This document shows positions 752 to 55,568 of a DNA stretch of 64,000 nt, piece by piece; the stretch's first letter is position 1, and every line of letters begins with the position of its first letter. The notes under the pieces are model-generated. The model worked only from the letters and a program-made list of their open reading frames with translations, did no database searches and was not told the origin of the DNA. The stretch lies in sequence record OZ346158.1; one strand, given 5' to 3'. Made by a program: the position numbers and the translations under genes. The stretch comes from a phage.

Positions 752-1438
752 ATGGCAGAGATTAAGTCGGATGTTAACCACATCCACACTCTGCCAGATT
801 TTGTTCAGGGAGGTCTTGACTACCTACCTGGAGATTTTCTGGCTGAGAAGGTTAATTTAGTCACATTCTTAACCGTATACCTTAAAAGGTTGGAGGATGT
901 TGATAAGATGCTGGTAGGTTTGGCTGAAGGAAGATTGCTTAACAATGCCAGCGGAAGATACCTTGACGAAGTTGGTAATCAGCTTGGTATTCTTAGGAAT
1001 GGACTTTCAGATGCTGATTTTCGTGCCACACTAATTATTCAGCAGGCTGCAGCATCAAGGGGCGGGACTCGCGAAGATGTCATCTCCACCTTGCGACAAT
1101 TGTTCGGAAGAGACAATTTCGATACGTGGAAAGGAGACAACTTCAGGTTTGACATAAATATTAGAAAAACTTGCTTTGACATATTGCAGTCTATCGATCA
1201 GATCTTAGATATGCTACCATTACCTTGTCATTTGCGTCTTACAGAATCGCAAGGGCAAGCTTTTGGTTTTGAAGGGGACTCTACAGCTCTTGGCTTCGGA
1301 TCAGTGTGGGAAGAAAGCCAATTCGGAGTTGGTGGGCTGGCTACTTTGCTATATGTTCCTGACGTAAGACCTGATTGGGACACCACAACCATTTATTGTG
1401 AAAGTATTACAGTAAACGCAACTAGACAGGAGGGTTAA
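752..1438 (+). CDS. hypothetical structural-module protein
   Basis: 228-aa ORF, tightly packed after previous gene, GGCGGCGAGA RBS-like upstream; stop overlaps next start (ATGA-type coupling). Confidence 0.6.
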   Translation: MAEIKSDVNHIHTLPDFVQGGLDYLPGDFLAEKVNLVTFLTVYLKRLEDVDKMLVGLAEGRLLNNASGRYLDEVGNQLGILRNGLSDADFRATLIIQQAAASRGGTREDVISTLRQLFGRDNFDTWKGDNFRFDINIRKTCFDILQSIDQILDMLPLPCHLRLTESQGQAFGFEGDSTALGFGSVWEESQFGVGGLATLLYVPDVRPDWDTTTIYCESITVNATRQEG

Positions 1439-3510
1439 TGGCAACAGCTGTTTTTAAACCTTACCGTGATTACTCTACAATGGCTGCACAGTTTCATTAC
1501 CGCACAGTTCAGGATACTGCCGTTCCTGGTAGAGATTATGATCATGTTGAGGGCGATGTAACTATCCCAGTTGGGGCAACCAGTATTGAGATCCCAGTGG
1601 AAATTGTTGACAAATTACCCAACAGGTTGCCAAGAAGCTTCTTTATGGAGTTTTCATCAAAATCTCAAGGAGTGATGATTGGAACACAAAGGGCGAAATG
1701 TACAATAGTTTCAGATGAGAATCTTGACAGGATATCTTGGGATACTGTTGAGGAGAGAATGTTTCACCCAAGATATTGGGTTACAACCACTCAGCAGACT
1801 GAAAGTACCTGTATTGTTGCAGATAACAACTGTTGTATTAACCGTTTAGTGTCAAGAACATATGGAGGTATGGCTGGGTGCATTTGGGAAACAGTTGACA
1901 AGTATGACCATTTCGGTATTGGGTTTGATGATCACTATGAGATGAGAAACACCAAGCTTTGGTTCAGAATGTCAATAACCAACGCCAGCAACTTCTCCAC
2001 TCCTGAAAAGATGATTATGACTGTAGACCTTGTTGATGGCACAATCATCTATGTTCCTTTAGCTCAATATGCTGTCAGCATCTCAGAGGATAAAAATGTT
2101 GCAGAAATTCATATTGATTTTGAGGACTGCGTCGGGATGGACCAGAACAACAACATGATGGGTGTTGATCCTCGGCAGGTGAGAAGGATTTTAATACCAC
2201 TTATGCCTAAAGACTGGGTAAGTAATAGCACAGATCCAAGAACGGAAAATGTAGAGTGTGAGTTGCGCCTAGATCTGCTTCAGCCAGACACAGGCTGGAA
2301 AATGATGCAACTTAATAATATCCAGGTGAGAGAGCACGACGTTGGGATCTGCACCGCATATGACGATATGTGGAACGTGTCCCCTTTAAGGGTGTTGAAC
2401 AATATCAAGCGTCTGGGCTATACCGGAACCATAAACCATTATGTTGGTATGAGTCATTATTATGACTACACATGGTCAGGAACCCAATGGTCTATAAACA
2501 GAACAGGAGCGCTAAACGCTGCAGCTTATAAATGGCATGATGATTTTATGTACAATGCCAAACGACATAACTTCGACGTTATGCAATCTGTAAGTTTTGA
2601 GCTTTTCAGCGATGCCTGCCCGTTGGAATGGACCCAAAGAGACTGGAACGATAACTACGCTAAAACAGGGTATACACCTTGTAGCTACCTCCTGTCTCCA
2701 ACCATTGAAGAGGGTATGAATTTCCTTACTGCAGTATTTAAGAATTTTGCATCAGCCGCTATGAGAAACAACCTGCCAGTGATTATGCAGGTTGGTGAAC
2801 CGTGGTGGTGGTACAATACCGATACTCGTAGACCTTGTATTTATGATTACCCTACAAAGCAGGCGTTTTATGATGAGACAGGTGAGTATGCATTAGATAT
2901 TGGGACTATTGACGATCCTAAAACTGGCGGTGTTTACGACAAGTATGTAGCATTTTGTCGTGGTAAGCTTGGCGCTCGTATTGCTGCTATTTCAAAGGCA
3001 ATAAAGGCACACGCTGCATCAGCTCAGATGACAGCTCTGCTGTTTTTCCCAACCATTATGGAAACCGAGCTTACGCAAAAGCTTAACCTTGCTGACCAAT
3101 ATAAAAAGGAAGCAGGTGCTCTTGATTTCTTCTGCACCGAGTGCTACGATTGGGTGATGCAGGGAGGTATTGAAAAGGCAAAAGAGTCTGTAAACATACC
3201 TATCGTTAAGTTAGGTTGGCAACCGTCTGAAATACAATACCTTGCAGGGTTCGTTCCTAGTAAAGAGCTTGCTCCGGTATATGGTTACGACCCAACTAGG
3301 AATTACCAAGAATTTTTATGGAGATGTATTTGCGGAAACATGGCAACTATAGAGTATAGATACCCTGAGGTAAAACAGTATGTGTGGGCATACCCGCAAG
3401 TAATGTCTGACAGCATCACTGTTACCGCTAGAGATTCTACCGTGCTTCATATGGGGCAGGTTGCTCTGAAAGGGTATGTAGAAGATGTTGTCCCGCCAGA
3501 CTTCTCATAA
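1438..3510 (+). CDS. hypothetical large virion protein (690 aa)
   Basis: Long uninterrupted ORF, GGAGGG RBS, translationally coupled to upstream gene; function not recognisable. Confidence 0.65.
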   Translation: MATAVFKPYRDYSTMAAQFHYRTVQDTAVPGRDYDHVEGDVTIPVGATSIEIPVEIVDKLPNRLPRSFFMEFSSKSQGVMIGTQRAKCTIVSDENLDRISWDTVEERMFHPRYWVTTTQQTESTCIVADNNCCINRLVSRTYGGMAGCIWETVDKYDHFGIGFDDHYEMRNTKLWFRMSITNASNFSTPEKMIMTVDLVDGTIIYVPLAQYAVSISEDKNVAEIHIDFEDCVGMDQNNNMMGVDPRQVRRILIPLMPKDWVSNSTDPRTENVECELRLDLLQPDTGWKMMQLNNIQVREHDVGICTAYDDMWNVSPLRVLNNIKRLGYTGTINHYVGMSHYYDYTWSGTQWSINRTGALNAAAYKWHDDFMYNAKRHNFDVMQSVSFELFSDACPLEWTQRDWNDNYAKTGYTPCSYLLSPTIEEGMNFLTAVFKNFASAAMRNNLPVIMQVGEPWWWYNTDTRRPCIYDYPTKQAFYDETGEYALDIGTIDDPKTGGVYDKYVAFCRGKLGARIAAISKAIKAHAASAQMTALLFFPTIMETELTQKLNLADQYKKEAGALDFFCTECYDWVMQGGIEKAKESVNIPIVKLGWQPSEIQYLAGFVPSKELAPVYGYDPTRNYQEFLWRCICGNMATIEYRYPEVKQYVWAYPQVMSDSITVTARDSTVLHMGQVALKGYVEDVVPPDFS

Positions 3511-3522
3511 TCAGGAGATAAA

Positions 3523-4563
3523 ATGTCAAAACCTAGTTTTCCATTAGAGATTTGGGCAGAGGAGGATCAGGTTCTGCCTAACACCCACAGACAGAACAGG
3601 CTACGCCCGATTGATGATTTGTGGAGAAAAGGTTGGGATCTTGGTCAAAAGCCCTCATGTGAAGAACTTAACTATATTTTCAATATGCTCGGAACTTGGG
3701 CAAAATACATTGCTGACGAGCAGATCCCCGCTCAAGAAGGCCGTTATCTGGTACGTGATAATAACTTGAGTGATCTTTTGAACATTCCTGTTGCCCGTAG
3801 AAACCTTGGGATTATTACTAAGGAAGAGGCAGACGCCAGGTATGTAAAAGTTACAGGTGATACAATGACAGGCCCATTGGGTTTGCAACGTATCAACTTT
3901 AAAGCTGCAGAGACAGATAAGGCTTGGATAGAGACAACTATTGGCCCAGATAAGACAACTCTCGACTTTGGGTTAAGTGATAATACTGGTTCGTTTGATG
4001 ATGGTGGTACATCTACGGTAGATGCGTTTCGTTGGAGATTCCAGCCAACTCAGCCGGATATTAATCCAGAGTTCACTTTGATGTACCTTAACGCGATCAC
4101 GGCTAACCGTGCGCTGTTGAAAGTGGTAGGCAATGTTGAAGTTGTCGATAACATGAGGTGCAATAACCTTACTATCAGCAATACAGCAACATTCACCAAC
4201 TGTAATGTGGCTAGTCAGTTGACGGCTGGGTCAGTATATGTTAATGGTGGTGCAAGTTGTGACAGTATGGTTGTAAGAAGCCAGCACTGTGTTGTAGGTA
4301 ACAGAAATGTGGTTCGCTCTGTGAACGGAGTGACGGCTAACGGTAACGGTGATGTAACGATCACTATCCCGCAGACAGGTGTGCAAGACATCAGAATCGG
4401 TGCAAGACTTGTGGACGGCGTTTCTGAATCTCCAATCCGCAACGGCTACGTTGTCACAGGCTGGCATTTCGGTGACAAAAAAGAGATGCGTGGTTCAACC
4501 TACTGGGCAGGACCTTTACAAAAACTTGTAAATGGTCAATGGATCACTGTTAATTATGCATAG
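3523..4563 (+). CDS. tail fibre protein, paralogue A
   Basis: 346 aa; GDTMTGPLGL motif typical of phage tail fibres; homologous along its length to 5575..6621 with near-identical C-terminus YW.G..QKLVNGQWIT(V/I).YA; AGGAGA RBS. Confidence 0.7.
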   Translation: MSKPSFPLEIWAEEDQVLPNTHRQNRLRPIDDLWRKGWDLGQKPSCEELNYIFNMLGTWAKYIADEQIPAQEGRYLVRDNNLSDLLNIPVARRNLGIITKEEADARYVKVTGDTMTGPLGLQRINFKAAETDKAWIETTIGPDKTTLDFGLSDNTGSFDDGGTSTVDAFRWRFQPTQPDINPEFTLMYLNAITANRALLKVVGNVEVVDNMRCNNLTISNTATFTNCNVASQLTAGSVYVNGGASCDSMVVRSQHCVVGNRNVVRSVNGVTANGNGDVTITIPQTGVQDIRIGARLVDGVSESPIRNGYVVTGWHFGDKKEMRGSTYWAGPLQKLVNGQWITVNYA

Positions 4564-4577
4564 ATCGGAGGACTAGC

Positions 4578-5162
4578 ATGAAAATACTTCAAGAGTTTAA
4601 ACTTTACCAACCGGGATCTGGCGAATACCACGCCAACAAGGAAACCAAAGAGCTGACCCCTCAAGAGGTTGAGGACTACACCGCATACACTGGGTATTTT
4701 TTACGTAATGATGATGGCGATTGGTATGTGCAGTCAAGAACATTACGACAAGAAAATCCGGGTTGTATCTTCCTACTTGTTGACGAAAAGGGAATTCTTA
4801 AGACATCTACAGAAGAACCTGATGCCTTATGGCCTGCTCCAGGTCTTCGTGTGGTTATCGCCAAAAAAGAAGAGGTACCAGAAAACATTATGCTTCACCA
4901 CGACGCTTTGCGTTTAGTTGGTGATGAATTTGTCACAGACAATGAATTCTTTGTTCAACAGGCAGAGGGTGTCATAGAGACAGAACTTGCTTGGGCTACT
5001 GCTAGAATTGGTGCCTATCAAGACATGATTGACCTTGAATATGATCTTACTGATGACCAGAAACGTAACATCAGAGATTTGAAAATGTACAGGGTAAAAC
5101 TTCTTGAAATAGATACATCTAAAGCCCCTGACATTTTCTTCCCGGAGCGACCTACCCTCTAA
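4578..5162 (+). CDS. hypothetical protein, possible tail-fibre assembly/chaperone (by position only)
   Basis: 194-aa ORF immediately downstream of tail-fibre gene, GGAGGA RBS; function inferred only from position. Confidence 0.45.
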   Translation: MKILQEFKLYQPGSGEYHANKETKELTPQEVEDYTAYTGYFLRNDDGDWYVQSRTLRQENPGCIFLLVDEKGILKTSTEEPDALWPAPGLRVVIAKKEEVPENIMLHHDALRLVGDEFVTDNEFFVQQAEGVIETELAWATARIGAYQDMIDLEYDLTDDQKRNIRDLKMYRVKLLEIDTSKAPDIFFPERPTL

Positions 5163-5173
5163 GAGGAGGTGTT

Positions 5174-5488
5174 GTGGAGTTGGATTTGGCGGCATTGTAC
5201 GGTATCTGCATGGGTACCGTTGTCCCGATCTGTGTATGGGCTTTCAACCAGTGGCACACCAAATGGAAAGGCATTTCCAAGAGGTTGGATGAACTGGAGA
5301 AAGACCTCATCTTAGTGAAAAACAGTATGGTTACAAAAGATAAACTTGATTCCGTTATCGAGACCCGGTTAAGTAAGCTAGAGGCCGATATTAACGACCT
5401 TAAGCAGGATGTCAGGACAGATGTCTCCGGTATCCGAGCTGATGTACAAAAGATTTTGCACATGCTCGTAGAGCATAGTAAAAGGTAA
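5174..5488 (+). CDS. membrane-anchored coiled-coil protein
   Basis: 104 aa, GTG start after GAGGAGG RBS; N-terminal hydrophobic helix (ALYGICMGTVVPICVWAF) then heptad-like charged region; followed by terminator. Confidence 0.5.
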   Translation: MELDLAALYGICMGTVVPICVWAFNQWHTKWKGISKRLDELEKDLILVKNSMVTKDKLDSVIETRLSKLEADINDLKQDVRTDVSGIRADVQKILHMLVEHSKR

Positions 5489-5497
5489 ACAAAGGTT

Positions 5498-5530
5498 AGA
5501 ACGGAAAGGACTCCGTTCTTGCATTTTGTT
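5498..5530 (+). terminator. rho-independent terminator
   Basis: 8-bp stem AGAACGGA/TCCGTTCT with 6-nt loop followed by TGCATTTTGTT. Confidence 0.6.
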
Positions 5531-5574
5531 CCCTAAAGTGTTAAAATAGTCCTAAGGAATTTTCTCAGGAGAAC

Positions 5575-6621
5575 GTGATGACTAAACCAGTTATCCCTCT
5601 TGATATTTGGGCCAATCAGGATGTTGTGCTTGAAAATACGGGAGAGTTGAATAAGTCTCAACCAAAAAAAGAAGAGAGATTGAAAGGTTGGGATATGACA
5701 CAAAGAGTGGCATGTGAAGTTGTTAACTTTGAACTTCACATGCTTTCTGCGTGGTTAAAGCATTTAACAGAAGATGTTGTCCCGGGATGGGATAATAGAT
5801 TCTTAAGGGTCACTAATAATCTAGCAGACGTTCCAGACAAAGCTGCTGCACGTCAAGTTCTCAATGTATACTCGCCTGAAGAAATGGACGATCTATATAT
5901 TGACAGGTCTGGAGACATAATGACTCAGACTCAAACTTTAGGTCTTCAAAGAATCGAGTTTGCATCTGCGTCAACAGACAATGCGGCAATATATACCACC
6001 ATAACTCCAGACAAGACGACGATGGATTTCTGGATTATGGACAACATCGGTGGTGCTGACGGCACAGACCTTGATGATCCTTCTCACCAAATAGACGGGT
6101 TCCGTTGGAGATTTCAACCTTCTGGTGGGCAGCCTGTGTTTTCGGCTATGAAGCTCAATGCTATAACTGCCAACCGTGCAAGACTGGCTATCCAAGGGAA
6201 TCTTGAATGCAACGATGCAAAAAGTTCCTCTGCAAATGCCAATGCGGTCACGATACCAAGAGCCACTATTAATGGACAACAATCCTGCGGAAGCGCTCAA
6301 ATAGGTGGAAGAGTTGATTGTAACGATGAAACCGTCAGGGGCCAATACGCAACAGTTGGTGGAAGAAACGTGGTCCGCAGGGTAAATGGTAACGGCGCAG
6401 ACAGTAGTGGTAACCTTACTATTCCTATGCCTAGCAGAGGGGTTGATGATGTAAGGATAGCAAACCGTTTCAAAACCACCTACAGAGAGTCAAGAGTCTA
6501 CCCTGGGCATGTGATGTGCTCTGGTAACTACGCTTATAAACACCCTTATCAAGGTGACTACTGGACAGGTGCTATCCAAAAACTTGTAAATGGTCAATGG
6601 ATCACTATATCTTATGCTTAA
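5575..6621 (+). CDS. tail fibre protein, paralogue B
   Basis: 348 aa; SGDIMTQTQTLGL motif; homologous to 3523..4563, C-terminal ~25 aa nearly identical; AGGAGAA RBS. Confidence 0.7.
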   Translation: MMTKPVIPLDIWANQDVVLENTGELNKSQPKKEERLKGWDMTQRVACEVVNFELHMLSAWLKHLTEDVVPGWDNRFLRVTNNLADVPDKAAARQVLNVYSPEEMDDLYIDRSGDIMTQTQTLGLQRIEFASASTDNAAIYTTITPDKTTMDFWIMDNIGGADGTDLDDPSHQIDGFRWRFQPSGGQPVFSAMKLNAITANRARLAIQGNLECNDAKSSSANANAVTIPRATINGQQSCGSAQIGGRVDCNDETVRGQYATVGGRNVVRRVNGNGADSSGNLTIPMPSRGVDDVRIANRFKTTYRESRVYPGHVMCSGNYAYKHPYQGDYWTGAIQKLVNGQWITISYA

Positions 6622-6632
6622 AAAGAGGGTAA

Positions 6633-6899
6633 ATGAAACTAACTCAGTTTTTATGGGGACTGGTTGCGGCATCTGATGACCCTACGAAAGTGTCCCAAAC
6701 TAAGCTATGGTCGAACATAGGCATGGCGGTGATGACTGGGGTGTTTATTCATATGGGGTATAATGATACGCTTCCTGAATGGTATGCGTGGATATACGCG
6801 CCTTCAGTAGCTTGCCCCCAGCTTATTAGCAAATTCATCTCGCTCCGGTGGGGTTGCCAGCACCCTGACCACGTTAAAAACGAAGAGCAAAAAGCTTAA
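6633..6899 (+). CDS. hypothetical small protein
   Basis: 88-aa ORF with GAGGG RBS-like sequence directly after fibre paralogue B. Confidence 0.45.
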   Translation: MKLTQFLWGLVAASDDPTKVSQTKLWSNIGMAVMTGVFIHMGYNDTLPEWYAWIYAPSVACPQLISKFISLRWGCQHPDHVKNEEQKA

Positions 6900-6908
6900 G
6901 GAGAAATC

Positions 6909-8654
6909 ATGGCGCAAGACATGACAAGCTTTGAGCAGGCGGTAGATCAAGTAATTGTTGATTCTGAACGTTTGCACTTGGTTGTCAACGGTAACGCTGT
7001 GGATGAAGTTGTCGTAGAGGATGGGACCACCATCCCTACGGTACGAAAAGCCATGCTTGACAACCTTTATTTTAAAACGCCACCGATCCCTTGGGCGTAT
7101 GGTGCATCCACAACAGTTTTTAACCAGCTGTACGAGTTTAAAGGGGACACAGGCCCTCAGTGGTGGTACGCTCCCGCAGCATCAAAATCTAACCCGGTTA
7201 GAATGCCAGCAGATCCTTCACAATCTCCAAACTGGAGATTATATACCGACTCTGCAGTAATGGCAAAATACTACGCAAAACTTAACAGCCCGAGGTTCGA
7301 AGGTGACCCACGAGTACCTACACCTCCAATGGACGATAAGTCAGAGTCCATAGCAAACACAGAGTTTGTTGTTGACTATGTTGATAGCATATTTAAAGCC
7401 ATGGAGGGGATGAAAGTTACTGTAGGGTCTTTGGTGGTAAAAGGTCTTACAGAACTCGCTAACACTATAGTTGGTGGCACCCTTACCTTACATGGACCTG
7501 TTAATGGGGCAGATTCTACTGCACGCTTTAGGAATCTAATCCTCACGGCAAATACTTCTACACTTACTTTTGCGTGGAGCGATCCTAAGCATGCAGACTG
7601 GAGAAGTACAGAGCTGCAACCTCATGAAGTGTCCACCCACAGGGTTGTAGCTGACACTATAACTTCTGGGAAACCAGTGGCTAATAATAACGATGTGCAT
7701 TTTGATGGTCTGGGTAATAACTTTTTTGACTACGTGTACATTCGTGGTAATGCCATGAAGGCAGCAACCGAACCGACATTGCAGGTCGATGGGACCACCA
7801 GGGTTAAGAACCTTGAGGTGACAGGTACCGTTACAGGGATAACATACTCTGTCGATGGCACCATGATCTACCCTAGCTATATTGAAAGCACGGGTGATGC
7901 ATTGATAAATGGCGATTTGGAGGTTGGCGGGTCTGTAGTTATTCGAGGTACAGCCTCTATCCAAAATATAGCTCTGAATACTCTAAGAGTCAATGAGCGT
8001 GCAACTTTTGAAGGAGAAGGGCTTACAGCCAATAAAGGTACAATTACCGAGCTAACCACCACCACTTTAACTGCAACAACTGCAAACTCTGAAAACTGCA
8101 ACATTACCAGAAACTTGCAGGTAAATGGAGATGTTAGTTTAAACGCCGCAGGGACTGGCACCACCCACCTTCACAACCTTGAAATATCCGGCACAGTGAC
8201 CGGGTGGCTGCCAGACTTCTCTAATGTCAACTTTGTCTGTAATGGCATTAACTCCAGTGGTAAGATAACCACCTCTCAAGAAATTGAGGCGGGTAAAACC
8301 ATTACTGCCCCTACTTTCCACGCAGGAAAGGTAGATTTTGACTTAGAGGAGGTTGACGCGTCCAGTGGGACATGGACACCTAACGGGCAGGCCAGTATGT
8401 ATGTTGTCCACGCTAAAGGGGATTTTACAATAGGTCAGTGGCCTGGGACATCAGCGGAAGATAAACCTTATCCATTCACTGCAGTTATCTATGTCATTCA
8501 GGATGCTGTAGGTCACAACGTGACTTTGCACGATAAGTATGCTATCCTGTCGGCAACACCTGTTATTAACAACAGGGCTAACAGTGTTACCTTGCTGCAA
8601 TTAACGTATTGTGGTGTTGGTGATATTGTAGACGTAGTAATTGCACAACGTTAA
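6909..8654 (+). CDS. tail fibre / tail spike-like protein
   Basis: 581 aa, AAGGAGAAA RBS; Thr/Gly/Asn-rich repetitive beta-type composition typical of fibres; in fibre cluster. Confidence 0.6.
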   Translation: MAQDMTSFEQAVDQVIVDSERLHLVVNGNAVDEVVVEDGTTIPTVRKAMLDNLYFKTPPIPWAYGASTTVFNQLYEFKGDTGPQWWYAPAASKSNPVRMPADPSQSPNWRLYTDSAVMAKYYAKLNSPRFEGDPRVPTPPMDDKSESIANTEFVVDYVDSIFKAMEGMKVTVGSLVVKGLTELANTIVGGTLTLHGPVNGADSTARFRNLILTANTSTLTFAWSDPKHADWRSTELQPHEVSTHRVVADTITSGKPVANNNDVHFDGLGNNFFDYVYIRGNAMKAATEPTLQVDGTTRVKNLEVTGTVTGITYSVDGTMIYPSYIESTGDALINGDLEVGGSVVIRGTASIQNIALNTLRVNERATFEGEGLTANKGTITELTTTTLTATTANSENCNITRNLQVNGDVSLNAAGTGTTHLHNLEISGTVTGWLPDFSNVNFVCNGINSSGKITTSQEIEAGKTITAPTFHAGKVDFDLEEVDASSGTWTPNGQASMYVVHAKGDFTIGQWPGTSAEDKPYPFTAVIYVIQDAVGHNVTLHDKYAILSATPVINNRANSVTLLQLTYCGVGDIVDVVIAQR

Positions 8655-8661
8655 TATATCT

Positions 8662-8690
8662 AACCGCTCCTGACGGGGCGGTTTTCTTAT
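8662..8690 (+). terminator. rho-independent terminator
   Basis: Stem AACCGCTCC/GGGGCGGTT (one G-U pair) with TGAC loop followed by TTCTTAT. Confidence 0.55.
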
Positions 8691-8702
8691 CTGGAGAACA
8701 CA

Positions 8703-11700
8703 ATGCTTCCAATCCCTTTGCTAAAACTTGGTCGTCATTTCCTCGATAAGAGGGGTGGAATTAAGGAACTTGCTGTTCTGTCATACCCAATAGACAACAG
8801 TGATGGTACAAGCAACACAGTATCCTATGTAAATAGCTTGGCTATACTTTTTGATGATGGTCAGCTTAATATTACGGGCTATAACAAGTTCGGGGAGTGT
8901 CGCACTGGGGATCGTAACCCTATAAACTACCCAAGCGAAACAGCCTGGAATGTTGATCATGTGTGGAGAGCAGACCGTGCGTTTGTGATCCGGACTTTTG
9001 ATAACCAGTTTTTCTACATCGGCTGCACTGCAGGTCTTATCGGATCCACTGCGGCAGGCGGTAATGATGTTTGCGTAAACGAGTGGACACCTCTTCCGGA
9101 ACAGATTGTTAAAGGGTTGCACCTTGACACCCACCCAGAGCGCCTTATTGAGGTGATGGGTGGTATTAACAACACTGTCTGGGTTATTGCAGAGGCAGAA
9201 GGCACTGGCATACTTAAACTATATGGATCTGGTAACAACACCTACGGATCTTTGCATGTAGATAAAAATCAGCATGCAACCCCTGTAAAGATTGGTGAGA
9301 CATCGGAAAATCCGGAAACAGGTCCTTGGAAAAACCCAAGCATCAACTGCGAGGTGCATGACAACTCTGTTATTTTCGGTGGTCCTAGAGGCTTCTGGAT
9401 TGCTGGATACGACTTTCTAAGAAATAACAGTAGAAACGACCTTGTTTGGCCTCCTGTGCAGATTACTCGTAACGATTTGAGGGGCATTCCTGCAGATGAA
9501 GAGTGGAAAGGGTTTATGTGCGGTCCTAACGGGGCAATAATTGCCACACAGAGGATGCACAAACCAAATGACCAGCAGCTTGTTAACGTATTCTACGGGC
9601 AAGACGTTTGGGGAGATGACACGTGGCGTTCCTTAAATATCACCTACACCCATGAGGTGATAATGGCTCGTGGATACGGCACAAGTGGCATTTTCTTCAA
9701 TAATGGCACTAAACAGTATCGTGGATTCTCTCGCAACTTGTGTAATGATATTGGTGCACAATCTGCAAACAATAGCCCTAGGGCTAATTTTATCCACTAT
9801 CAGGCTCTTGCTACAGCTAAATATGTTGAGCAACGCCTGCCAGTTAGCTGGACAGAGAGTGTTTATTTCCAAGGCATCCACAGGGAAGGTTTCTTAGGAA
9901 CCTTTACTGTTGTTAATGGCAAACTTTGGTGGTCAGGCATCCCAAGGGGGAGTTTTGCAGGATCTAACAACCTCTTTGGCGGCAGACTTAACAGCCAAGG
10001 GTTCACAGAGATTCCGGAGAATTGGTATAAAAATGTCCCGGTAGATAGCTGGGGTATCGAAGACATCTTTGATGTCAATGGTGTGAGCAATGTTAGCAAC
10101 ATTTACATCGGAGATACTGTCAAGATGAAATTGAAACCTCAGCCGGAGGGTGCTACGTTCATTATTGACAAGATTGAGTTGGTAAATGCTGCAGGCACTG
10201 TTGTTACAGATGCAAACTATCAGTTCTCCACTAACTGGAACCATGGTGGTGCTAACGAAGTTGTGGTCACCCAGTATAACCGTAACATCAACAGACGTGG
10301 TTTGTATTCTATCAAGATCACCTACCATGACAAGCATGGCACTGGAAGAACCTATACGACAAGAACTTTGAACTGGAACACTATAGTTCCTGCGTATCCG
10401 TCCAACGGCAAGTGGCATACCGTTGGTAGAAACAAGCAGTTCCATGTTAACGATACTGTATACTTTGGGCTGAATGGGACCCAGCCTGCAGTAGAAGGGG
10501 ATACATCGTATATGGTCAGACTCCACAGAATGGATGCTGGATCAGTCACTTATGATGTGACCCAAGAGATCTACGATCAAAGACGTGCCACGTATGACAA
10601 TATTGTAAAAACACAAGCCTTGTGGGAGTTCAATCCTAATGGCAAGGGTGGTAAAATGTTGCAGGTTAATGAGCAGAACGGAACGTCGTTGACTGTTCAC
10701 GAACACCCAGACCCTTGGCCTGATCCTGGAAAACCTCACCCGGGAGCTCGTACACTGAAAATTGTCAGCCATGATGCAGGATATTTCGGAATACGCTGGG
10801 AAGCTACAGTAAGATATGTCGACGGGACAACAAACAACATAGGGATTACACTTGGCGGCACTAGTGAAGATAACTCGCTGAAAATTGCCTACACGCCCAG
10901 AGGTATCTCTATTGATAGTATGGATGTTGTTCGCAATGGCTACGGCGATGTGAATGTCAAAGTTACTCTTGGCGAACATCTTGGTGGGGAAAGGATCATC
11001 ATGTATGCCTTTGATCATGATCCACGCACCAATGGAACTTATGCAAATCAGGCATGGAGTTACCTGATAAATGCACCTGAGCCGAATACTAAAGAGTTCT
11101 ACTATGGTATGAAGCGAGATGTGTGCAAGAAAACAGGAACACATGACTGGATTGCTATCTGCGTTAAAGATGAGCGCACAGCTTGGGATGAGCCTGTTAA
11201 CAGATGGTTCATAGGTATTCCTACCAGAAGTGATAAGTATGTCGCAGAATATATTGTATGCATGGGCGGTACCAACCTAAACATGTGTTGGAACGAAGAT
11301 GTAAACAAATACTCTGATTATGACTATATGAGGGATTACTCTTGTAATTTGTGGTTTAACCAAACTACAGGTTACCCTCCAAGACAGGCGAGAGTAAACC
11401 CTGCAATCTTCACAGACACGCAGGTTTTCTTGACAAAACAGGCCAACGAGGTTCAGACCTTCAAGAATAAATACGATCCTAACAAGTGGTTCTACAACTG
11501 TTACGGCGCATTTTTCTGGGGACCTGGTGAGTTACCTGGTGGGGGATCTTGCTTGAATGAGGCAACTTACGCAAGTGACTACATCATGGGGCAGGTCAAG
11601 AAGTATAAGATAATCCCCGGTCCTGAGACTTTGGGCAATGCCGTTGACCCTTATATCATCATGACTGCACTGAGATCAAACATGGATGGGACATCCATGT

Positions 11701-31007: not shown

Positions 31008-32333
31008 ATGAGTAAAACCAAATTAGAACTTACCTGGATAGGTAAAAACGAGCGCAAAAAGTTAGAGCCGCACATTTTGTTAGAAGATTCTAGCAAGTCT
31101 TACCACAGCCAGAAAGTGACCGAAAACGATATTTTTGATAATAAACTGATTTTTGGAGATAACTTATTAGCATTGAAGGCGCTAGAGCAAGAGTACGCAG
31201 GCAAAGTGAAGTGTGTTTACATAGACCCACCATTCAATACCGGGAGGGCTTTTGAGCACTACGATGATAGCCTGGAGCATTCCATTTGGCTGGGCTTAAT
31301 GAGGGATAGGTTAGAAATAATTCGTAATCTTCTAAGTGATGATGGGGTAATATTCGTTCACTTAGATGATTGCGAAATGGCGTATTTAAAAGTTTTGATG
31401 GACGAGATTTTTGGTCGTGCAAATCAGTTAAATACCATATCGATGACCACAAATTCCCCTTCGGGATTTAAGGCAACGGGAGCCACAGTTTTCTCCACAG
31501 CAAACTTTTTGCTTGTATATGCAAAAGATCGCACCCAGAAACCGCTTAACAAAATCTATATACCTAAAGGGTATGATACCGGATATAACAAATACCTATT
31601 AAACCCGGATGATCATTATAAAAATTGGACGTGGTGCGGTATTGCCGATGCGTTTGCAAAGGCCAATGGCTATAAAGATGCAAAAGAAGCCAAGAAAAAA
31701 CTGCCTGACACATTCGATGATGAATTAGCACAATTTGCAATTGATAATGCAGAACGTGTATTTCAATCTGTTGCAATTGGTGGTGGTGCTAAAATAAAGA
31801 GAAAAGAAACTATAGAGAAGTCAAAGAAAGATAGGGATAAGGTTTATGTACATCCAAATGAGGATGTTGAAGGATTTTATATCGCAAATGGTAGGCAAAT
31901 GGTCTTTTACTCCAACAGGCTTTTGGAAATTGACGGTGATATGCAACCTGCGGAACTAATAACTGATGTTTGGACAGACATTAGTTGGAATGGAATAGCA
32001 AATGAAGGCGGCGTTAGTTTCAAAAATGGGAAAAAACCAGAAGCGCTTTTGAAGCGGATTTTCGAAATGTGTACGCGAGAAGGTGATTTGGTATTGGATT
32101 CATTCGGTGGTTCGGGAACTACTGCCGCTGTAGCTCACAAGATGAAAAGACGTTGGATCTCCATCGAGATTGGTGATCATTGCCATACCCATATTATTCC
32201 GCGCTTGGAAAAAGTGATCGATGGGGAAGATCAAGGTGGTATTTCTAAGTCTGTAAACTGGCAAGGTGGTGGTGGCTTCCGTTATTACAAACTTGCCCCG
32301 ACCTTAATTGCGAAAGATAAGTCTGATCAATAA
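31008..32333 (+). CDS. DNA N6-adenine methyltransferase (beta class)
   Basis: 441 aa; catalytic DPPF motif (CVYIDPPFNTG) upstream of SAM-binding motif DSFGGSGTT, the beta-class order; AAGGAGAG RBS. Confidence 0.8.
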   Translation: MSKTKLELTWIGKNERKKLEPHILLEDSSKSYHSQKVTENDIFDNKLIFGDNLLALKALEQEYAGKVKCVYIDPPFNTGRAFEHYDDSLEHSIWLGLMRDRLEIIRNLLSDDGVIFVHLDDCEMAYLKVLMDEIFGRANQLNTISMTTNSPSGFKATGATVFSTANFLLVYAKDRTQKPLNKIYIPKGYDTGYNKYLLNPDDHYKNWTWCGIADAFAKANGYKDAKEAKKKLPDTFDDELAQFAIDNAERVFQSVAIGGGAKIKRKETIEKSKKDRDKVYVHPNEDVEGFYIANGRQMVFYSNRLLEIDGDMQPAELITDVWTDISWNGIANEGGVSFKNGKKPEALLKRIFEMCTREGDLVLDSFGGSGTTAAVAHKMKRRWISIEIGDHCHTHIIPRLEKVIDGEDQGGISKSVNWQGGGGFRYYKLAPTLIAKDKSDQ

Positions 32334-42849: not shown

Positions 42850-42932
42850 CAAATACCTATTGTAATTTACAGAAGGGGATGCTAAAATAGTGTCTCCTTC
42901 TATGTTGTTCAAATAAAATCGGAGATTCCATA

Positions 42933-55525: not shown

Positions 55526-55568
55526 TTAAACCCTGTTAAAATAATCAGTGCAAAAAGGAGTAATGATC

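Follow-up and report, generated by a model that had tools for sequence, protein, structure and literature searches.

The two paralogous short tail fibre (STF) genes studied here, termed A and B, are found in a 64,000-nt stretch of phage DNA (OZ346158.1, hereafter called the window), and the explanation that we consider quite probably correct as a whole is that they represent a known fibre pair, anchored through the N-termini, that shares a C-terminal framework strand and undergoes recurrent gene conversion between A and B. Comparison of fibres across the family showed that the amino-acid identity of this strand can be attributed to a family-wide structural or assembly constraint, and statistical and comparative evidence showed that the identity over 30 nt of its coding sequence reflects gene conversion between the two genes.

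The window is that of an rV5-like Vequintavirus, with more than 98% identity to more than 100 Vequintavirus genomes. Both fibre genes are located on the plus strand, A at 3523..4563 (346 aa) and B at 5578..6621 (347 aa from its ATG), and they are the orthologues of rV5 gp33 and gp30, respectively, with a chaperone gene (tfa, 194 aa, 4578..5162, plus strand) orthologous to rV5 gp32; the rV5 numbering was taken via the annotation notes of PVP-SE1 and FV3. At the DNA level the window is 98–99% identical to rV5-type genomes, the gene order agrees, and the fibres correspond both in length (346 and 347 aa) and in being 42% identical to each other. The open reading frames were those given in the preliminary description, save that the start of B in annotated relatives is the ATG at 5578 and not the GTG at 5575. 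A was 100% identical to BASEL bas51_0035, annotated as ‘short tail fiber protein’, and B carries the same annotation in the BASEL phages, the locus being one of short tail fibres and a chaperone. Both proteins matched PHROG 4465 (‘tail fiber protein’) with the full profile covered (A, E=1.8e-171; B, E=1.6e-165), and a Pfam search gave no significant domain in either of them.

The gene pair with its chaperone has already been described, and there is nothing new in the genes themselves. Passages of the 2013 paper on rV5 present gp30 and gp33 as fibre proteins of 42.3% identity that possibly recognize two LPS chemotypes, and report detection of gp30, gp32 and gp33 in virions by mass spectrometry (PMC3606486, Kropinski et al.). 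The 2021 BASEL paper, in the parts considered here, describes two paralogous short tail fibres and a chaperone, related to Mu GpS/GpU, and a dependence of all tested Vequintavirus on the same LPS outer-core glucose (PMC8594841, Maffei et al.). No description of the terminal framework strand, the tip cassette or conversion between the paralogues was found in those passages of the two papers or in literature searches, and nothing pertinent turned up when the literature was searched for gene conversion or concerted evolution among paralogous tail fibres. The DNA-level detail, that is, recurrent conversion confined to the 3′ tip, appears to be the new part, and it is a modest one.

When A and B were aligned over their full length by BLASTP, 42% identity and 58% positives were found (E=6e-94), in agreement with the earlier view that they are homologous along their length. 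The divergence was uneven along the genes and a C-terminal module was present, but the genes were not ‘diverged centrally’ as had been thought, the central shaft (columns ~120–215) instead being the best-conserved long stretch with 56–64% identity; the least conserved columns were ~50–100, ~216–250 and the tip at ~300–335, with 20–32%. The C-terminal module proved to be real and above chance, with 15 of the last 19 aligned residues identical and an exact core of QKLVNGQWIT, although it was an overstatement to call the last ~25 residues almost identical, as the last 25 alignment columns were 56% identical and the consensus truly common to A and B extended only to Y-W-x-G-x-x-QKLVNGQWIT-x-x-YA. 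A GD.MTG.L motif ascribed to both proteins was intact in A (GDTMTGPL, aa 112–119, 3856..3879, plus strand, read from the translation) but degenerate in B, where GDIMTQTQTL has a 2-residue insertion and no G. In an alignment of 31 sequences G112 was invariant and D113 nearly so, and the GDTMTGPL region of A aligned with residues 150–261 of Mu gpS.

The preliminary description had offered the shared C-terminus as an anchoring module, whereas homology to the phiTE fibre places the anchor at the other end of the protein. In phmmer searches, residues 1–111 of the phiTE STF (9cuy_c) were matched with E=1.4e-19 by A and E=1.6e-8 by B, and the family profile matched the phiTE STF over residues 1–91 with E=8e-36. 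Residues 3–92 of that fibre have been modelled by cryo-EM as docked on baseplate wedge protein 1 (PMC11972413), and by this homology we infer that the N-terminal ~95 aa of A and B form the baseplate wedge anchor (in A aa ~1–95, 3523..3807, plus strand). At the opposite end, the tip of A (aa 286–343) matched Mu gpS 440–501 (phmmer, E=1.7e-6) and the family profile matched Mu gpS with E=9.3e-14; with B alone, phmmer gave no match to Mu gpS. Using AF2 monomer models of low confidence (A, pLDDT 59.8 and pTM 0.29; B, pLDDT 57.2 and pTM 0.25), which served only for this match and for no structural detail, the sole significant PDB match in Foldseek was 5yvq_A (A, E=2.8e-7; B, E=1.5e-5), the Mu fibre with its chaperone. 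Judged from these homologies, the C-terminus of A and B is the distal receptor-binding tip and not the anchor, and both fibres, which are of the Mu gpS type, would be laid out as a wedge-docking N-terminal domain of ~95 aa, a shaft and a distal receptor-binding tip formed by the last ~60 aa. The shared module would then lie at the far end of the fibre and frame the receptor-binding tip, which corrects its assignment as an anchor. By analogy with Mu GpS/GpU, the single Tfa probably aids in folding of the tip, and a role of the C-terminal module in assembly, for example as a nucleus of chaperone-assisted folding, is plausible.

The tip itself would consist of ~45 hypervariable residues held between two frames, G-V-x-D-[IV]-R to the left and P-[ILV]-Q-K-L-V-N-G-x-W to the right. 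Over the ~42 residues preceding the shared strand, A and B were only 31% identical. The tip of A (aa 287–344) was 57–62% identical to tips of PVP-SE1, Justusliebigvirus, Phapecoctavirus and Rosemountvirus, with the tblastn matches of A in Rosemountvirus and Phapecoctavirus starting at aa 287 (57–61% identity), and the tip of B was 33–38% identical to other A-type tips. From such comparisons, A is seen to carry a widespread cassette type (aa 287–332, 4381..4518, plus strand, of the ‘GVSES...GDKKEMRG’ type) and B a different one (aa 289–333, 6442..6576, plus strand, ‘...GHVMCSGNYAYKHPYQGD’), so that the virion probably displays two specificities. As far as can be told from sequence, the cassette moves between unrelated phages as well as between the two paralogues. 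Among 31 fibres, representing six or more tip types, Q333 and W340 of the right-hand frame were invariant and G338 nearly invariant, giving the consensus PIQKLVNGxW, and the same strand was recognized at the end of Mu gpS (PVQKNINGTW) and at the end of the phiTE fibre (PIQKKVNGVW). Considering this distribution, the ‘near-identical C-terminal module’ is to be regarded as the right-hand framework strand of an exchangeable tip cassette, and its amino acids are conserved family-wide instead of being specific to the pair. The limits of the cassette, at aa ~287 and ~332, are the ones to use when therapeutic phages of the rV5 kind are to be engineered for host range.

The strand is encoded by an exact 30-nt repeat, located at 4519..4548 in A (QKLVNGQWIT, aa 333–342) and at 6577..6606 in B (aa 334–343), both on the plus strand. 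None was expected in shuffles, and this core lies within a longer direct repeat, 63 nt in length and 84% identical. Within the last 25 alignment columns, identical residues shared their codon in 12 of 14 cases, against 5.4 expected from the phage's own codon usage (P=2.6e-4), whereas outside those columns it was 40 of 127, against 48 expected. Likewise, pS between A and B was 0.26 in the last strand and 0.83–0.90 in all other regions, and a Sawyer-type permutation test of the longest concordant run, treating constraint as even along the gene, gave P=0.0018. Taking the window alone, with its 30-nt tract and a strongly constrained peptide having several two-codon residues, the significance is modest, with a P of about 1e-3 to 1e-4.

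Comparison with relatives, grouped into clades W, X and Y, added to this. Clade X, in which identity to the window is 87% for A and 77% for B, showed three derived silent changes (CTG/GTC/CAG) shared by A and B, within a 29-nt exact run. In clade Y, silent co-variation was seen as CTT in both copies of L031 and CTC in both copies of L022, this type of evidence being drawn from a few metagenomic lineages. The identical A/B tracts had different end-points from lineage to lineage and measured 30 nt in clade W, 29 nt in clade X, 23 nt in L019, 30 nt in L022, 59 and 39 nt in L031 of clade Y and, in L021 of the same clade, 110 nt of 100% identity covering the tip. In 21 genomes, all exact runs of at least 20 nt were located at aa 289–342, save for one in clade X, of 20 nt, that coincides with the conserved motif FRWRFQP. 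The exact 30-mer was found on only 3 IMG/VR contigs, all of them rV5-like loci, and the scans of IMG/VR and JGI added just a few loci; in FV3, L004 and L023 the patch has changed independently at silent positions. As synonymous sites are saturated elsewhere and lineage-specific silent variants are shared between the copies, these data argue for recurrent conversion confined to the 3′ tip. Conversion has taken place repeatedly, in different lineages, and in some of them an entire tip has been copied over into the other paralogue. A single ancient conversion was rejected, since both copies show three silent differences between clades W and X.

The proposal of a duplication followed by diversification of specificity could be retained in part, since A and B are true paralogues with different tip types (31% tip identity), but it was too simple, as the tree splits A from B and the 3′ ends have been re-homogenized by conversion. 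In that tree, built from anchor plus shaft, A clustered, with 58% support, with fibres that occur as single copies in other genera, and B fell outside. For A versus B and among clades W, X and Y, pS was 0.7–0.98, so that synonymous sites were saturated and omega was not estimable; within clade W there was no sign of diversifying selection, with omega at 0.01–0.09 in every region. Recurrent conversion between A and B means that the tips evolve non-independently, and C-terminal fibre phylogenies and receptor predictions can therefore mislead. As a separate observation, inter-lineage recombination between A and B was seen in BP9.

It could be argued that purifying selection on the protein alone has kept the strand, with codon identity arising from chance and codon bias and with no conversion at all, which we regard as improbable. 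The strand is kept family-wide, many unrelated tips carry exactly QKLVNG.W, and in L019 and L032 of clade Y the same A/B peptide is encoded by different codons, which shows that selection alone can maintain the peptide. However, that explanation has to contend with the codon agreement given above (12/14 versus 5.4, P=2.6e-4), with the three silent substitutions common to both clade X paralogues, with the CTT/CTC co-variation in L031 and L022 and with the 110-nt identical tract in L021, and the silent-site co-variation largely refutes it. A perfect match over 30 nt between genes that are saturated elsewhere, together with the position of the tract 15 nt from the stop codon in both of them, could instead point to a functional nucleic-acid element kept in both genes, such as a protein or sRNA site, a translational signal or a recombination site. 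We find this scarcely credible, because 2–7 silent differences are tolerated, in either copy, in FV3, ECP32, L004 and L023, because clades W and X do not have the same sequence there, because the clade Y copies are not identical and have identical tracts elsewhere, and because the identity ends before the stop codon with differing contexts downstream (tfa in one case, the membrane protein gene in the other). The occurrence of the exact 30-mer on just 3 IMG/VR contigs speaks against it as well, and a widespread DNA element was rejected on that ground.

The 30-nt patch could also be a recombination scar, the tip of A or B having been imported from another phage by double crossover with the right junction in the strand, thus leaving the 3′ end of the recipient in place. 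Unrelated phages clearly do exchange tips, the boundaries lying at aa ~287 and ~344, the tract in L021 starts on its left side where the cassette does, and the recombination in BP9 agrees with such events. Still, a retained 3′ end would require the two genes to have been near-identical at that time, while pS elsewhere is 0.83–0.90, and lineage-specific silent variants common to both copies are left unexplained. With the 30-mer also being absent outside Vequintavirus in the IMG/VR search, this explanation has in our judgement little chance of being right.

Building on recurrent conversion, one more far-reaching reading would join the 3′ tip as a conversion hotspot with toggling of tips and retention of the strand for Tfa or a folding nucleus, and this we put forward only tentatively, as rather unlikely to hold. 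Recurrent intragenomic conversion of the co-expressed fibre genes would then be seeded by the framework strand, a lineage would toggle between two different tips (as in clades W and X and the window) and same-tip copies (as in clade Y), and the strand would be kept identical since both fibres have to be recognized by the single Tfa or by a folding nucleus common to their C-termini. If true, this would be a recombination-based counterpart of the G-segment switch of Mu. The Mu GpS/GpU pair is homologous to A and B in the tip and part of the shaft, by sequence and fold, it has a Caudo_TAP chaperone gene downstream as A does, and with S and S′ one phage also possesses two alternative fibre tips. 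In the Mu G segment, however, C-terminal halves with matching chaperones are switched by site-specific inversion and one is expressed at a time, whereas in the window both genes are complete, each with an N-terminal anchor of its own, and there is a single chaperone gene, both fibres were found in virions of rV5, and exchange between the copies takes place through homologous gene conversion without an invertase.

The phiTE (Certrevirus) STF (9cuy/9mjn) resembles A and B in its wedge-docking domain of ~95 aa and in the tip frame, ending PIQKKVNGVWVTI, but it differs in being a single-copy protein of 554 aa with a long coiled-coil and Ig-like middle and a proposed binding to flagella. For the rV5 fibre, a passage of the rV5 paper gives an HHpred similarity to 1PDI (PMC3606486). 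That similarity probably reflects generic fibre repeats, and the name ‘short tail fibre’ for A and B is a functional analogy to T4 gp12, of which no chain was found among the PDB sequence matches or the Foldseek matches of A and B at E<=10. In the T-even gp38 adhesin, conserved glycine-rich motifs frame hypervariable segments, and tail-fibre genes are exchanged in a mosaic manner. As in A and B, short framework motifs there flank hypervariable receptor-contact segments and may also give the homology for recombination that shuffles specificity, but gp38 has an unrelated fold and family, and the exchange takes place between phages and not between co-resident paralogues. The terms GRM and HVS appear in a preprint (10.64898/2026.04.02.716166).

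With regard to the surrounding genes, two small genes and a terminator lie between A and B as first noted. The former of these, tfa, directly downstream of A and the sole tfa gene of the locus, encodes a protein with a Caudo_TAP domain (PF02413, E=8.4e-12, residues 121–192; PHROG 136). When the N-domain of Tfa was compared with tip type, all were 27–45% identical, with no pattern separating A-type from other tips. The divergence of Tfa across clades was closer to that of B than to that of A, which is merely suggestive. The second small gene (5174..5488, plus strand, 104 aa, phrog_5345) is an rV5 gp31 orthologue encoding a hypothetical protein, the homologue of which is called a membrane protein in an annotation note of PVP-SE1, and across clades its divergence keeps pace with that of B and Tfa. 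It is followed by an intrinsic-terminator-like hairpin with a T-rich tail (5498..5519, plus strand), identified by terminator scan and RNA folding at -17.5 kcal/mol (z=-4.5, a stability reached by none of 200 shuffles). Upstream of B there is a late-promoter-like motif, TGTTAAAATA (5539..5548, plus strand), with one mismatch to the late motif TggTAaAAtA given for rV5 in a passage of PMC3606486; this motif was enriched in the window (19 found, 6.9 expected), and clades W, X and Y all retain TG[TC]TAAAATA upstream of B although the flanks have diverged. A 16-nt exact repeat (3480–3495/5769–5784) encodes EDVVP twice, was not kept in other lineages and was judged coincidental. Adjoining the 3′ end of B is a gene for a small membrane protein, and not a tfa gene (6633..6899, plus strand, 88 aa, phrog_1322, rV5 gp29 orthologue). 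The gene order of baseplate genes, STF, tfa, small gene, (STF-B), membrane protein gene and next fibre gene was identical in WalterGehring, rV5_ev168, FV3 and others, and in relatives with a single STF a 4-TM gene occupies the position of B.

More than 100 phage genomes in GenBank were 98–99% identical to bases 3000–9000 of the window, and by sequence the window is that of an rV5-like Vequintavirus. Two short tail fibre paralogues, here denoted A (3523–4563, 346 aa) and B (5575/5578–6621, 347 aa as counted from the ATG annotated in relatives), were 42% identical over their full lengths (E=6e-94), in agreement with the paralogy proposed in the preliminary description. The two small genes and the terminator said to separate them were also found, being a Caudo_TAP tail fibre assembly chaperone gene (Tfa, 4578–5162; PF02413, E=8.4e-12), a conserved 104-aa gene (5174–5488, phrog_5345) and a strong terminator-like hairpin (5498–5519; −17.5 kcal/mol, z=−4.5). 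Located 5' of B, together with a ribosome binding site, was the late-promoter-like TGTTAAAATA (5539–5548), with this motif kept in three diverged clades. The rV5 late-promoter-like TGGTAAAATA, allowing at most one mismatch, occurred in 19 copies over the whole window compared with 6.9 expected, a number reached in 0 of 100 shuffles; examples are found at 5539–5548, 31787–31796, 42880–42889 and 55534–55543. No chaperone gene followed downstream of B, where instead a small membrane-protein gene (6633–6899) was situated directly 3' of the fibre gene. By the gene numbers used in the PVP-SE1 and FV3 entries, the rV5 orthologues are gp33 for A, gp32 for the chaperone and gp30 for B; the rV5 study detected all three proteins in virions using mass spectrometry (PMC3606486).

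The 690-aa gene located 5' of A (1438–3510) carried Pfam NCTSP_N and TIM barrel domains (E=4e-80), which are those of N4-type non-contractile tail sheath proteins, plus Calx-beta, and it is the counterpart of the NGR/ECA-binding deacetylase fibre described in the literature for Vequintavirinae. Its 3' end (3480–3495) shares a 16-nt exact direct repeat, AGAAGATGTTGTCCCG, with the N-terminal part of B (5769–5784). Both copies encode EDVVP, and the repeat is probably coincidental, as the pair was absent as such from other lineages. It can also be noted that the name ‘Campylobacter phage’ and the host Campylobacter jejuni are given in 16 GenBank records of the MG0656xx series (21 by protein search), which are nonetheless 98–99% identical to E. 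coli rV5-like phages across the locus at 3000–9000; this host label looks doubtful, or else a result of contamination or co-isolation.

With regards to fibre architecture, the N-terminal ≈95–110 aa matched the N-terminal end of the short tail fibre of phiTE (9cuy) using either A (E=1.4e-19), B (E=1.6e-8) or the family profile (8e-36). Since residues 3–92 of the phiTE protein form a joint bound to baseplate wedge protein 1, as seen with cryo-EM (PMC11972413), the anchor of A and B is predicted to be N-terminal. The terminal ≈60 aa of A aligned with the tip of phage Mu gpS (5yvq), and with the family profile the match extended to the gpS shaft. Although the AF2 monomer models of A and B were of low confidence (pLDDT 57–60), the sole significant PDB fold match for the models of both paralogues was 5yvq_A, i.e. 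the Mu fibre–chaperone complex (E=2.8e-7 for A, 1.5e-5 for B). Sequence comparison hence showed homology to solved fibres for both anchor and tip. Studies of Mu and Pam3 indicate that the variable N-domain of Tfa binds the distal fibre tip and that its conserved C-domain drives trimerization (PMC9608196). By analogy, A and B would be trimers having their N-termini docked on the wedge, with the single Tfa assisting both and with tips that may bind LPS-core structures.

The preliminary description was thus correct in its observation of a conserved C-terminal module and partly right in its interpretation, but wrong in assigning that module an anchoring role. Of the last 19 aligned residues 15 were identical, including an exact 10-residue core, QKLVNGQWIT; the last ≈25 aa were accordingly conserved, although being 56% identical over 25 columns they were not ‘almost identical’. 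Nor were the proteins diverged centrally, as the central shaft was their best-conserved long region (56–64%), with the weakest alignment found at columns ≈50–100 and ≈216–250 and in the tip at ≈300–335. A had the proposed GD.MTG.L motif in intact form (GDTMTGPL), B a degenerate version of it (GDIMTQTQTL).

Aligning 31 family members having at least six different tip types, we found the terminal strand to follow the consensus P-I-Q-K-L-V-N-G-x-W, in which Q333 and W340 never varied and G338 hardly did, and similar ends are seen elsewhere in Mu gpS (PVQKNINGTW) and phiTE (PIQKKVNGVW). Judged from this alignment, the terminal strand constitutes a framework across the whole family. The terminal strand is preceded by ≈45 hypervariable residues, and these in turn by another conserved frame, VGGRNVVRxVNG...GVxD[IV]R, showing that the tip is organized, and behaves, as a cassette; the module shared by A and B is the right-hand frame of that cassette. 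The variable part of the A tip (from aa 287) was 57–62% identical to tips of PVP-SE1, Justusliebigvirus, Phapecoctavirus and Rosemountvirus, the last being an unrelated 52-kb phage sharing the A-type tip, and only 31% identical to the B tip. The two paralogues therefore carry different tip types here, and may well differ in specificity in this genome.

At the DNA level, A and B shared a direct repeat of 63 nt, in which a core of 30 nt (4519–4548=6577–6606) encoding the terminal strand was exact; none was expected from shuffles. Identical residues used the same codon in 12 of 14 cases inside the last 25 columns (5.4 expected from phage codon usage, P=2.6e-4), as compared with 40 of 127 outside them (48 expected), and the synonymous-site difference was 0.26 in the last strand versus 0.83–0.90 in every other region. 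A Sawyer-type longest-run permutation test flagged the same 30-nt tract (P=0.0018). Using homology searches of public assemblies, we also obtained two further, diverged two-paralogue clades, X and Y, beyond the window's own clade W. In clade X, whose A and B were 87% and 77% identical to those of the window, the two copies of the patch once more hardly differed, with an exact run of 29 nt, and three derived silent substitutions (CTT>CTG, GTA>GTC and CAA>CAG) were all present in the patch of both paralogues. In clade Y (A ≈72%, B ≈50%) the tip type was common to both paralogues and the identical tracts were genome-specific and sat further upstream, including a 110-nt tract of 100% A/B identity exactly spanning the tip in L021, 59+39 nt in L031, 30 nt in L022 and 23 nt in L019, with silent variants common to both copies being CTT in L031 and CTC in L022. 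Among 21 genomes, all exact A–B runs of at least 20 nt lay within aa 289–342, the one exception, of 20 nt, being in clade X at the conserved FRWRFQP motif; nucleotide differences elsewhere amounted to 44–52%.

Such co-variation of silent sites between paralogues, together with lineage-specific tract ends, is the pattern characteristic of recurrent gene conversion, which was shown here to be limited to the 3' tip region. A single ancient conversion event does not produce this co-variation with differing end-points, and neither selection at the protein level alone nor a conserved nucleic-acid element would yield silent sites co-varying within tracts whose ends differ between lineages. The DNA sequence of the patch is, as such, also unconstrained: FV3, ECP32 and two additional loci (L004, L023) had 2–7 silent changes in one or the other copy, B of the FV3 clade had an L-to-F replacement, and the exact 30-mer was found on only three IMG/VR contigs. 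In recurrent conversion, the conserved strand may serve as the short homology that seeds each event, with longer tracts presumably persisting only where the hybrid tip works.

In an NJ tree built with bootstrapping from anchor and shaft, the A clade (100% support) joined the fibres that other genera carry in single copy (58%), and the B clade (100%) fell outside both. The internal topology (Y,(X,W)) was the same in the A and B clades, so that B was present in the common ancestor of the three clades and co-diverged with A. A recent simple tandem duplication is unsupported; B would be a paralogue of old or foreign origin, or else a duplicate that has evolved fast. Where relatives have a single fibre (PVP-SE1, TH18 and L020), the position of B was occupied by a gene for a 157-aa membrane protein with four transmembrane segments (Pfam Phage_phiTE_239; 4497–4970 in L006, 4520–4993 in L007 and 6458–6931 in L020, a Seunavirus-like contig). 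As this gene lies exactly at the site of B (window 5575–6621), B either replaced it or was replaced by it.

Comparing window positions 4578–5488 and 5578–6621 with L016, L019 and L021, we found that B (77% identity between clades W and X, then 50% to Y), Tfa (78%, then 47%) and the 104-aa gene (83%, then 52%) diverged in parallel, and faster than A (87%, then 72%) and the flanking fibre genes, which is weakly suggestive of B co-evolving with the single chaperone. Within clade W, omega was 0.01–0.09, showing both fibre genes to be under strong purifying selection.

What is central to the interpretation in the preliminary description had already appeared in 2013 and 2021, and the ideas of paralogy and diversification are therefore not new. 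In the literature searched, no earlier description of recurrent micro gene conversion between these paralogues was retrieved, and the DNA-level finding on the shared module appears to be the new part; what the present analysis adds is the evidence for that process between A and B, together with defined boundaries of the tip cassette.

Some individual genomes may finally be mentioned. In Escherichia phage BP9 (L014, PP488543.1), gene A showed 15 differences to the window over 1041 nt and gene B 61 over 1044 nt, the latter gene being FV3-like, and this mosaic implies that Vequintavirus lineages recombined somewhere between the two fibre genes. Fibre B of pangalan (L015, 2456–3490) had a 3-aa deletion, giving 344 aa, and FFH2 (H11/H12) carried ≈335 extra bases in the stretch matching window 3000–9000, located outside 3523–6621.
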